From NCBI RefSeq assembly GCF_003334405.1, contig NZ_QOWM01000007.1: a stretch of 64,000 nt of DNA. One strand, 5' to 3'. The notes below the pieces were generated by a model. The model did not search any database. It had not been told where the DNA came from and saw only the letters and a list, made by a program, of their open reading frames with translations. The position numbers and the translations under genes were made by a program. This DNA comes from Escherichia coli (GTDB taxonomy: Bacteria > Pseudomonadota > Gammaproteobacteria > Enterobacterales > Enterobacteriaceae). The first letter of the stretch is position 1, and each line of letters opens with the position of its first letter. Below, one piece after another: positions 23,818-26,937 of this stretch.

Positions 23818-23991
23818 TATCACGGATGCTTTTATAAAAATAATTAGAATAAGTCACTACGCATTCCCATAAATGCGGGAGAGGAATCTATCACATTGAT
23901 GAATGTTAGCCAGATATACGCCAGGAATGGGGAATTGTTTAGCGGCAGAATATGTAAACAAAAGCGGCAATAAATGTTGCCGGGAGAGATG

Positions 23992-24096: not shown

Positions 24097-24186
24097 TTAC
24101 TTCAGGTATTTCAGAACAGCATCAAGCAGTTGCAGTGCTGCAACAATGAGTTTGAGGATAAGAATGGCGATATCCACCAGGTTCAT
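24097..24186 (-). CDS. tisB: Type I toxin TisB (29-aa membrane peptide, SOS-induced)
   Basis: Minus-strand translation gives MNLVDIAILILKLIVAALQLLDAVLKYLK then stop; too short for the ORF track. Confidence 0.9.
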   Translation of the reverse strand: MNLVDIAILILKLIVAALQLLDAVLKYLK

Positions 24187-24420
24187 ACGCGTCTCCTGTG
24201 GTTCAGGAGCACTGCCAGCTGACGTACCTTTCCGCTGCCTGTTGCCAGCTGTTGTGCACGCGGTATCTCAAGGAGAAACGTTGTGCTTGTTGACATAACA
24301 CAGTGTGCTCACGCGGGGTTAAGGCGCTGACGGCACCACCCGTTTCAGCCAGGACTTAGTGCGCCGGGTAACGATGCGGCCCCCGCATAACACATTGCGT
24401 ACAGTGATATTATAGAAGTT

Positions 24421-24440
24421 TACTGTATAAATAAACAGTA
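24421..24440. promoter_or_regulatory. LexA operator (SOS box) of the tisAB/istR locus
   Basis: tactgtataaataaacagta, a perfect 20-bp palindrome matching the CTGT-N8-ACAG consensus, about 235 bp upstream of tisB. Confidence 0.85.
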
Positions 24441-24546
24441 ATATTTGGACAAAACGCAAACTGTGATCGATACTCAACTATGCACTAAATACGTCAAAAT
24501 TCGTGCCGAAATTGCGCGTTCTGCGCGGAACACGTATACTTTCAGT

Positions 24547-24622
24547 GTTGACATAATACAGTGTGCTTTGCGGTTACCAGCCGCAGGCGACTGACGAAAC
24601 CTCGCTCCGGCGGGGTTTTTTG
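24547..24622 (+). ncRNA. istR: Candidate IstR-1 antitoxin sRNA (boundaries approximate)
   Basis: Candidate -10 tatact at 24535-24540; a 21-nt segment (24547-24567) repeats the tisAB leader segment 24319-24339; ends at a hairpin plus gggtttttt at 24601-24622. Confidence 0.5.
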
Positions 24623-24750
24623 TTATCTGCAATTCAGTACAAAACGTGATCAACCCCTCAATTTTCCCTTGCTGAAAAATTTTCCATTGTCTCCCCTGTA
24701 AAGCTGTGCTTGTATAAATATTGTTAAACACAAAACCAACAAGGTCCCCA

Positions 24751-24849
24751 ATGACTACTTCCATGCTCAACGCAAAACTACTACCAACTGCGCCATCCGC
24801 CGCAGTGGTCGTCGTGCGTGTGGTGGTGGTCGTCGGCAATGCGCCGTAG
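24751..24849 (+). CDS. ivbL: ilvB operon leader peptide
   Basis: Translates MTTSMLNAKLLPTAPSAAVVVVRVVVVVGNAP, with the Val/Leu-rich run typical of a branched-chain amino acid attenuation leader. Confidence 0.9.
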   Translation: MTTSMLNAKLLPTAPSAAVVVVRVVVVVGNAP

Positions 24850-24873
24850 GGACTGGAACAACACACGATTCCA

Positions 24874-24907
24874 AAACCCCGCCGGCGCAAACCGGGCGGG
24901 GTTTTTC
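24874..24907 (+). terminator. ilvBN attenuator terminator
   Basis: aaaaccccgcc-ggcgcaaaccg-ggcggggttttt: GC stem flanked by A- and T-runs, 25 bp after the ivbL stop. Confidence 0.75.
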
Positions 24908-24954
24908 GTTTAAGCACCTCCCGGAAAGTCGGCCCAGAAGAAAAGGACTGGAGC

Positions 24955-26643
24955 ATGGCAAGTTCGGGCACAACATCGACGCGTAAGCGCTTTACCGGCG
25001 CAGAATTTATCGTTCATTTCCTGGAACAGCAGGGCATTAAGATTGTGACAGGCATTCCGGGCGGTTCTATCCTGCCTGTTTACGATGCCTTAAGCCAAAG
25101 CACGCAAATCCGCCATATTCTGGCCCGTCATGAACAGGGCGCGGGCTTTATCGCTCAGGGAATGGCGCGCACCGACGGTAAACCGGCGGTCTGTATGGCC
25201 TGTAGCGGACCGGGTGCGACTAACCTGGTGACCGCCATTGCCGATGCGCGGCTGGACTCCATCCCGCTGATTTGCATCACTGGTCAGGTTCCCGCCTCGA
25301 TGATCGGCACCGACGCCTTCCAGGAAGTGGACACCTACGGCATCTCTATCCCCATCACCAAACACAACTATCTGGTCAGACATATCGAAGAACTCCCGCA
25401 GGTCATGAGCGATGCCTTCCGCATTGCGCAATCAGGCCGCCCAGGCCCGGTGTGGATAGACATTCCTAAGGATGTGCAAACGGCAGTTTTTGAGATTGAA
25501 ACACAGCCCGCTATGGCAGAAAAAGCCGCCGCCCCCGCCTTTAGCGAAGAAAGCATTCGTGACGCAGCGGCGATGATTAACGCTGCCAAACGCCCGGTGC
25601 TTTATCTGGGCGGCGGTGTGATCAATGCGCCCGCACGGGTGCGTGAACTGGCGGAGAAAGCGCAACTGCCTACCACCATGACTTTAATGGCGCTGGGCAT
25701 GTTGCCAAAAGCGCATCCGTTGTCGCTGGGTATGCTGGGGATGCACGGCGTGCGCAGCACCAACTATATTTTGCAGGAGGCGGATTTGTTGATAGTGCTC
25801 GGTGCGCGTTTTGATGACCGGGCGATTGGCAAAACCGAGCAGTTCTGTCCGAATGCCAAAATCATTCATGTCGATATCGACCGTGCAGAGCTGGGTAAAA
25901 TCAAGCAGCCGCACGTGGCGATTCAGGCGGATGTTGATGACGTGCTGGCGCAGTTGATCCCGCTGGTGGAAGCGCAACCGCGTGCAGAGTGGCACCAGTT
26001 GGTAGCGGATTTGCAGCGTGAGTTTCCGTGTCCAATCCCGAAAGCGTGCGATCCGTTAAGCCATTACGGCCTGATCAACGCCGTTGCCGCCTGTGTCGAT
26101 GACAATGCAATTATCACCACCGACGTTGGTCAGCATCAGATGTGGACCGCGCAAGCTTATCCGCTCAATCGCCCACGCCAGTGGCTGACCTCCGGTGGGC
26201 TGGGCACGATGGGTTTTGGCCTGCCTGCGGCGATTGGCGCTGCGCTGGCGAACCCGGATCGCAAAGTGTTGTGTTTCTCCGGCGACGGCAGCCTGATGAT
26301 GAATATTCAGGAGATGGCGACCGCCAGTGAAAATCAGCTGGATGTCAAAATCATTCTGATGAACAACGAAGCGCTGGGGCTGGTGCATCAGCAACAGAGT
26401 CTGTTCTACGAGCAAGGCGTTTTTGCCGCCACCTATCCGGGCAAAATCAACTTTATGCAGATTGCCGCCGGATTCGGCCTCGAAACCTGTGATTTGAATA
26501 ACGAAGCCGATCCGCAGGCTTCATTGCAGGAAATCATCAATCGCCCTGGCCCGGCGCTGATCCATGTGCGCATTGATGCCGAAGAAAAAGTTTACCCGAT
26601 GGTGCCGCCAGGTGCGGCGAATACTGAAATGGTGGGGGAATAA
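24955..26643 (+). CDS. ilvB: Acetolactate synthase I large subunit (ThDP-dependent)
   Basis: 562-aa ORF; Shine-Dalgarno aaggactggag; recognised IlvB sequence. Confidence 0.95.
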   Translation: MASSGTTSTRKRFTGAEFIVHFLEQQGIKIVTGIPGGSILPVYDALSQSTQIRHILARHEQGAGFIAQGMARTDGKPAVCMACSGPGATNLVTAIADARLDSIPLICITGQVPASMIGTDAFQEVDTYGISIPITKHNYLVRHIEELPQVMSDAFRIAQSGRPGPVWIDIPKDVQTAVFEIETQPAMAEKAAAPAFSEESIRDAAAMINAAKRPVLYLGGGVINAPARVRELAEKAQLPTTMTLMALGMLPKAHPLSLGMLGMHGVRSTNYILQEADLLIVLGARFDDRAIGKTEQFCPNAKIIHVDIDRAELGKIKQPHVAIQADVDDVLAQLIPLVEAQPRAEWHQLVADLQREFPCPIPKACDPLSHYGLINAVAACVDDNAIITTDVGQHQMWTAQAYPLNRPRQWLTSGGLGTMGFGLPAAIGAALANPDRKVLCFSGDGSLMMNIQEMATASENQLDVKIILMNNEALGLVHQQQSLFYEQGVFAATYPGKINFMQIAAGFGLETCDLNNEADPQASLQEIINRPGPALIHVRIDAEEKVYPMVPPGAANTEMVGE

Positions 26644-26646
26644 GCC

Positions 26647-26937
26647 ATGCAAAACACAACTCATGACAACGTAATTCTGGAGCTCACCGTTCGCAACCAT
26701 CCGGGCGTAATGACCCACGTTTGTGGCCTTTTTGCCCGCCGCGCTTTTAACGTTGAAGGCATTCTTTGTCTGCCGATTCAGGACAGCGACAAAAGCCATA
26801 TCTGGCTACTGGTCAATGACGACCAGCGTCTGGAGCAGATGATAAGCCAAATCGATAAGCTGGAAGATGTCGTGAAAGTGCAGCGTAATCAGTCCGATCC
26901 GACGATGTTTAACAAGATCGCGGTGTTTTTTCAGTAA
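26647..26937 (+). CDS. ilvN: Acetolactate synthase I small (regulatory, ACT-domain) subunit
   Basis: 96-aa ORF 3 bp after the ilvB stop. Confidence 0.95.

Follow-up and report, generated by a model that had tools for sequence, protein, structure and literature searches.

The ivbL-ilvBN locus and its surroundings

The window analysed here is a stretch of 64,000 nucleotides from Escherichia coli, in which the segment 24751-24954 on the plus strand lies directly before the genes of acetohydroxyacid synthase I. It opens with a short open reading frame, ivbL (24751-24849; 32 codons plus UAG, product MTTSMLNAKLLPTAPSAAVVVVRVVVVVGNAP), continues into a GC-rich hairpin followed by a run of T, and ends precisely where ilvB begins (ATG at 24955), as an earlier note on this DNA had placed it. 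The first regulated gene, ilvB (24955-26643, plus strand), encodes the large subunit of acetohydroxyacid synthase I (NCBIfam NF006016 equivalog, 1087.5 bits, cut-off 870) and ilvN (26647-26937, plus strand) encodes the small subunit (NCBIfam NF006036 equivalog, 185.8 bits, cut-off 128); the pair directly follows ivbL on the same strand. Upstream of ivbL stand yidH, yidG, yidF, emrD, ysdE and tisB, and beyond ilvB come ilvN, uhpA and uhpB.

Positions 24400-25100 show 100% nucleotide identity to E. coli K-12 MG1655, where the RefSeq annotation at the matching positions reads 'ivbL: ilvB operon leader peptide IvbL', together with ilvB. The peptide MTTSMLNAKLLPTAPSAAVVVVRVVVVVGNAP scores 78.7 bits (cut-off 60) over positions 1-32 of 32 of NCBIfam NF007579, the equivalog model 'ilvB operon leader peptide IvbL'. 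These matches, along with the IlvB and IlvN equivalogs, bear out the claim of the earlier note that an ivbL leader and attenuator precede ilvBN. A search of Rfam with the plus strand of 24722-24910 matched no family at E up to 1; Rfam appears to be without an ivbL model, and the missing match says nothing against a leader structure. Weak Rfam matches on the minus strand, to P6 and STnc310, were rejected, being the terminator hairpin read backwards.

Of 5426 complete E. coli genomes, 5419 contain the whole leader and attenuator (24751-24912), at 95-100% identity and, with a single exceptional record, in one copy. When the wider query 24400-25100 is used, coverage falls below 80% in about 1070 of 5424 E. 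coli genomes, and most genomes carry a second matching place. The attenuator was rejected as the source of this second place, as it is single copy; since the leader is both complete and single copy, the variable or repeated part of the query must lie on its tisB/istR side (24400-24750). In that direction lie the divergent type I toxin gene tisB (24097-24186, minus strand), just upstream of the ilvB promoter, and the istR sRNA (24492-24621, plus strand; Rfam RF01400, 150 bits, full model), which is the only strong Rfam match nearby, with a LexA-box-like palindrome, TACTGTATAAATAAACAGTA (24421-24440), between the two. The 24-aa small protein YsdE (23899-23973, plus strand) is annotated by RefSeq between emrD and tisB and corresponds to a 25-aa TTG-start frame at 23896-23973 in the list of open reading frames.

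The ilvB promoter is reportedly cAMP-dependent, to go by the title of the 1982 paper of Friden and colleagues. The promoter scan flagged no sigma-70 promoter, and a search with the CRP consensus returned 200 matches against 210 expected by chance; a weak CRP match at 24645-24660 was rejected as evidence because the search overall was no better than chance.

The leader peptide and its control codons

Translation of the sequence places the ivbL frame between an ATG at 24751 and a TAG at 24847-24849, and 12 of its 32 codons specify Val or Leu; the start, length and Val/Leu-rich character proposed beforehand are thus all correct. The Val control codons occupy 24805-24834 (codons 19-28) and read GUG GUC GUC GUG CGU GUG GUG GUG GUC GUC, that is, nine Val and one Arg. 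The earlier note counted nine Val in a 13-residue stretch: the count stands and the span does not, as all nine fit within 10 residues. Six-frame translation of the whole 64 kb gives no other 10-residue run with at least eight identical residues, besides the reverse-complement reading of the same run. The three Leu codons are CTC at 24766-24768 and the tandem CTA CTA at 24778-24783 (codons 10-11). The latter pair, CUA CUA in the transcript, probably takes part in the sensing of leucine, as suggested by the reporter data of PMC11187965.

The 5' untranslated region of ivbL is C/A-rich at 24727-24741 and is followed by AAGG at 24741-24744, 6 nt 5' of the ATG, a putative Shine-Dalgarno element as read from the sequence, the AGG of which is kept in most of 73 aligned leaders from related species. 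Within the frame, just 5' of the Val run, a hairpin at 24783-24809 is built around a CUGCG/CGCAG core (24788-24792 with 24801-24805) and has a predicted stability of -11.0 kcal/mol (z = -2.7). One of its pairs covaries among the aligned sequences (UA in 39, CG in 33), with no sequence left unpaired. By analogy with trp, its position suggests a candidate pause hairpin that would synchronise ribosome and polymerase. In a second, long helix (24751-24833), the Val run is paired with the beginning of the frame.

Two alternative hairpins beyond the Val run

The Rho-independent terminator (regions 3 and 4; 24873-24910) consists of a 13-bp stem with one bulged G, formed by 24873-24885 and 24892-24905, and a tail of UUUUUCGUUU. 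Its hairpin, AAAACCCCGCCGG-CGCAAA-CC(G)GGCGGGGUUUU (24873-24905), closes on a six-base loop, has its GC core at 24877-24901 and folds at -21.1 kcal/mol (z = -2.8 against shuffled sequences). The GC hairpin and T-run had been expected 25 bp past the ivbL stop, and they are found there, the A-U-extended stem beginning after 23 nt and the GC core after 27 nt. A generic promoter and terminator scan did not flag the attenuator, likely because the bulged G leaves an uninterrupted stem of 7 bp and a loop of 11 nt, above the limit of 8 set in that scan. The terminator coincides with a 3' end found in vivo: Term-seq places one at MG1655 3852831(-), 47 nt upstream of ilvB, which corresponds to window position 24908, just past UUUUUCG (Adams et al. 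2021; PMC7815308, supplementary files 1 and 3), and it was classed there as not Rho-dependent, given an intrinsic-terminator score of 11.96 and flagged uORF (PMC7815308).

The alternative structure, the antiterminator (regions 2 and 3; 24840-24889), pairs 24840-24846 with 24883-24889 and 24849-24851 with 24878-24880, and encloses an inner hairpin (24854-24873; UGGAAC/G-UUCCA) with a C/A-rich, conserved loop. Its 5' arm, region 2 (24840-24851; UGCGCCG plus GGG), holds the UAG stop of ivbL. At -21.9 kcal/mol (z = -4.0) it is matched in stability by none of 200 dinucleotide shuffles. Bases 24873, 24878-24880 and 24883-24885 are common to the antiterminator and the 5' arm of the terminator, and because of these shared bases in 24873-24885 the two structures cannot coexist. 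The mutually exclusive pairings that the earlier note proposed looking for in the leader are therefore present, with the antiterminator overlapping the terminator 5' arm.

Conservation across the Enterobacteriaceae

A scan with IlvB, at one genome per species, collected 80 loci from the Enterobacteriaceae with 83-99% protein identity (Escherichia, Citrobacter, Salmonella, Klebsiella, Raoultella, Enterobacter, Kluyvera, Kosakonia, Pluralibacter and others). Two of them were excluded for having too little upstream DNA, leaving 78 that could be tested; their leaders gave an alignment (A1) of 73 distinct sequences. Each of the testable loci (78/78) repeats the ivbL-ilvB-ilvN layout and carries a leader of 31-33 codons with the core (V/A)VVV(R/S)VVVVVG(N/S/I)AP. 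The N-terminal codons of ivbL vary from locus to locus; the start, frame, length and stop are conserved, and CTACTA is invariant in all 73 aligned leaders. The alignment with other ilvB leader regions that had been suggested as a check thus favours the attenuator reading, with the terminator and the outer antiterminator kept in 73/73 sequences.

The segment 24805-24906, about 100 nt that reach from the Val run across the terminator, is almost invariant across the 73 species of the alignment, synonymous positions included, at loci where the IlvB protein itself is 83-99% identical. Such near-invariance is compatible with overlapping constraints from coding, tRNA sensing and the formation of several structures. 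Across the alignment, pairing is kept in 98.7% of cells at the terminator, where 11 of the 13 pairs never change, and in 98.6% of cells at the outer antiterminator helices, where 8 of the 10 never do. Because these main helices are invariant, covariation neither supports nor opposes either of them. The inner hairpin (24854-24873) displays a compensatory change, with AU in 37 sequences and UA in 11. The RNAalifold consensus of the alignment is the antiterminator, not the terminator, a choice consistent with the near-equal stability of the two.

In three other genera an ERIC-like insertion (loci L007:626-800, L022:629-800 and L054:628-800) lengthens the spacer from the attenuator to ilvB by about 125 nt, and shorter related insertions occur in loci L016, L044 and L052; carriers include some Citrobacter, Klebsiella and other Enterobacteriaceae. 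The insertion of about 125 nt presumably belongs with the ERIC/IRU repeats, which it resembles in matching the ERIC primer sequences with up to 5 edits.

Folding of the leader and the position of the ribosome

The effect of translation on folding was modelled by placing a 30-nt ribosome footprint codon by codon and masking the bases beneath it, both on the full leader and on nascent transcripts. For the full leader, the terminator conformation (-71.0 kcal/mol) is favoured over an enforced antiterminator (-66.6 kcal/mol), and at equilibrium the terminator forms at every masked ribosome position with a probability of about 0.75-0.89. A thermodynamic switch at equilibrium was consequently rejected in favour of a co-transcriptional one, since the full leader never abandons the terminator under masking; without equilibrium switching the switch must be kinetic.

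Nascent transcripts ending at 24886-24891, before the 3' arm of the terminator has been made, behave differently from the full leader. Their minimum free energy structure is the antiterminator, which remains complete when the ribosomal A site is on any of codons 6-27 (all of the Leu codons and nearly all of the Val codons) and is lost when the A site is on codons 28-33, because the ribosome then masks region 2, including the UAG. This predicted behaviour under masking follows the logic of classical attenuation. Switching is seen only in these truncated transcripts, and the decision would presumably be made by the kinetic order in which the structures fold. Energies for nascent RNA that is not translated favour the antiterminator by about 10.7 kcal/mol over 'protector' pairings that form earlier (one of 24834-24837 to 24843-24846, the other of 24743-24748 to 24849-24854), and termination without translation therefore does not follow from thermodynamics alone.

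The structures suggest the following course of events. Transcription of the leader would start at a point probably some 25-30 nt upstream of the ivbL ATG, and a ribosome would translate the 32 codons of ivbL while RNA polymerase is still within the leader. With charged Val- and Leu-tRNA plentiful, the ribosome would reach the last codons or the UAG and mask region 2 (24840-24851), region 3 (24878-24889) would be free to pair with region 4 (24892-24905), and transcription would end near 24906-24908, before ilvB. With Val or Leu scarce, the ribosome would stall within the run of nine Val codons (24805-24834) or at CUA CUA (24778-24783) and leave region 2 exposed; region 2 would then pair with region 3 as soon as the latter is transcribed, sequestering the 5' arm of the terminator and permitting read-through into ilvBN.

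Published work describes the element in these terms. The original description is credited to Friden, Newman & Freundlich 1982 (review, PMC6123439), and the element is presented as a Val/Leu-responsive attenuator in PMC11187965, PMC6123439 and PMC5373646. An ivbL-gfp reporter is repressed by Val plus Leu (CRUISE paper, PMC11187965), and swaps of the control codons in ivbL change the amino acid that is sensed (PMC11187965). Translational fusions of ivbL to lacZ are expressed, and attenuation at ivbL is stronger with longer ribosome dwell on the UAG (Baggett et al. 2017; PMC5373646), an effect in line with the masking model. The literature is the source for the Val/Leu response, for the effect of stop-codon occupancy and for the 3' end in vivo.

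A second 3' end and the alternatives to attenuation

A second abundant Term-seq 3' end is listed at MG1655 3852897(-), equivalent to window position 24842 on the plus strand, inside ivbL codon 31, in two blocks of the published table (PMC7815308, supplement). The attenuator end at 24908 appears in a block with Rho scores and the 24842 end in two other blocks (PMC7815308), which, from their order and their missing Rho scores, probably represent LB at OD 2.0 (stationary-phase LB) and M63 (minimal medium). The 24842 end lies 9 nt beyond the long helix 24751-24833 and about 13 nt beyond Val codons 26-27. An exonuclease may have stopped here, either at that helix or at a stalled ribosome, and the end may be a decay intermediate, a ribosome-protected end, or the terminus of a stable leader-derived RNA; alternatively, a ribosome stalled on the final Val codons could have its front edge here. 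Were the stable RNA real, it would be about 120 nt long with a C/A-rich 5' end, and a reported partner of GcvB, and might work in trans, for instance by sponging GcvB. A second role for the ivbL leader RNA besides attenuation is nonetheless judged improbable.

Another alternative makes a trans-acting factor on the leader RNA the main control in place of ribosome stalling, the candidates being GcvB, an sRNA, together with Hfq and RNase E. There is some reason to consider it, since GcvB is reported to target ivbL, with sites for RNase E in the interval up to ilvB (PMC11347164), C/A-rich stretches are present both in the 5' untranslated region (24727-24741) and in the conserved loop at 24860-24866, and the 24842 end has been published. 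The authors of PMC11347164, however, call GcvB an added layer that needs corroboration, and control of this type would leave both the invariant Val/Leu codons and the alternative hairpins unexplained. Exchanging control codons, moreover, re-targets the amino-acid specificity (PMC11187965), and GcvB as the principal regulator is very unlikely. Least credible of all is a constitutive terminator, or the leaky insulator of an independent short transcript, next to which the Val-rich frame would be incidental and no ribosome-dependent switch would exist: it agrees with an equilibrium structure that is the terminator at any ribosome position and with outer antiterminator helices devoid of covariation, but not with an antiterminator far stabler than its shuffled controls (z = -4.0) and kept in 73/73 species, a UAG stop placed inside region 2, a frame whose length, start and stop are conserved though its N-terminal codons vary, or published reporters that respond to Val/Leu and to stop-codon occupancy.

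The segment 24751-24954 is thus read, with a probability of about 97%, as the leader peptide ivbL with the ribosome-mediated attenuator that governs transcription of the E. coli ilvBN operon, which encodes acetohydroxyacid synthase I. The identity of the element and its open reading frame are demonstrated by the present analysis, as are the two alternative structures, which exclude each other and are conserved.

Relation to other amino acid attenuators

The element is the same as the ivbL-ilvBN attenuator of E. coli K-12, with identical peptide, terminator and downstream genes and no difference between them. It shares with trpL, hisL, leuL, thrL, ilvL and pheL a short frame rich in the codons that are sensed, alternative hairpins, and a Rho-independent stop before biosynthetic genes. 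Unlike these leaders, ivbL belongs to a separate sequence family (with no Rfam leader match at E up to 1), its sensing is multivalent (Val and Leu), its stop codon falls within region 2, and its 'protector', the analogue of a 1:2 pairing, is thermodynamically weak. The attenuator of the Corynebacterium glutamicum ilvBNC operon is likewise described as a leader peptide with branched-chain codons and a three-hairpin model ahead of the acetohydroxyacid synthase genes (PMC11857589). It is unrelated in sequence, belongs to another phylum and precedes an operon of other make-up.

The ivbL attenuator is already known, and nothing in it is new: it is a textbook element from a model organism, RefSeq annotates it and synthetic biology makes use of it, and the present findings alter none of this. 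The value of the present check lies in the exact coordinates that it provides, in the alternative hairpins found to be present, and in the near base-for-base conservation of the element across the Enterobacteriaceae.
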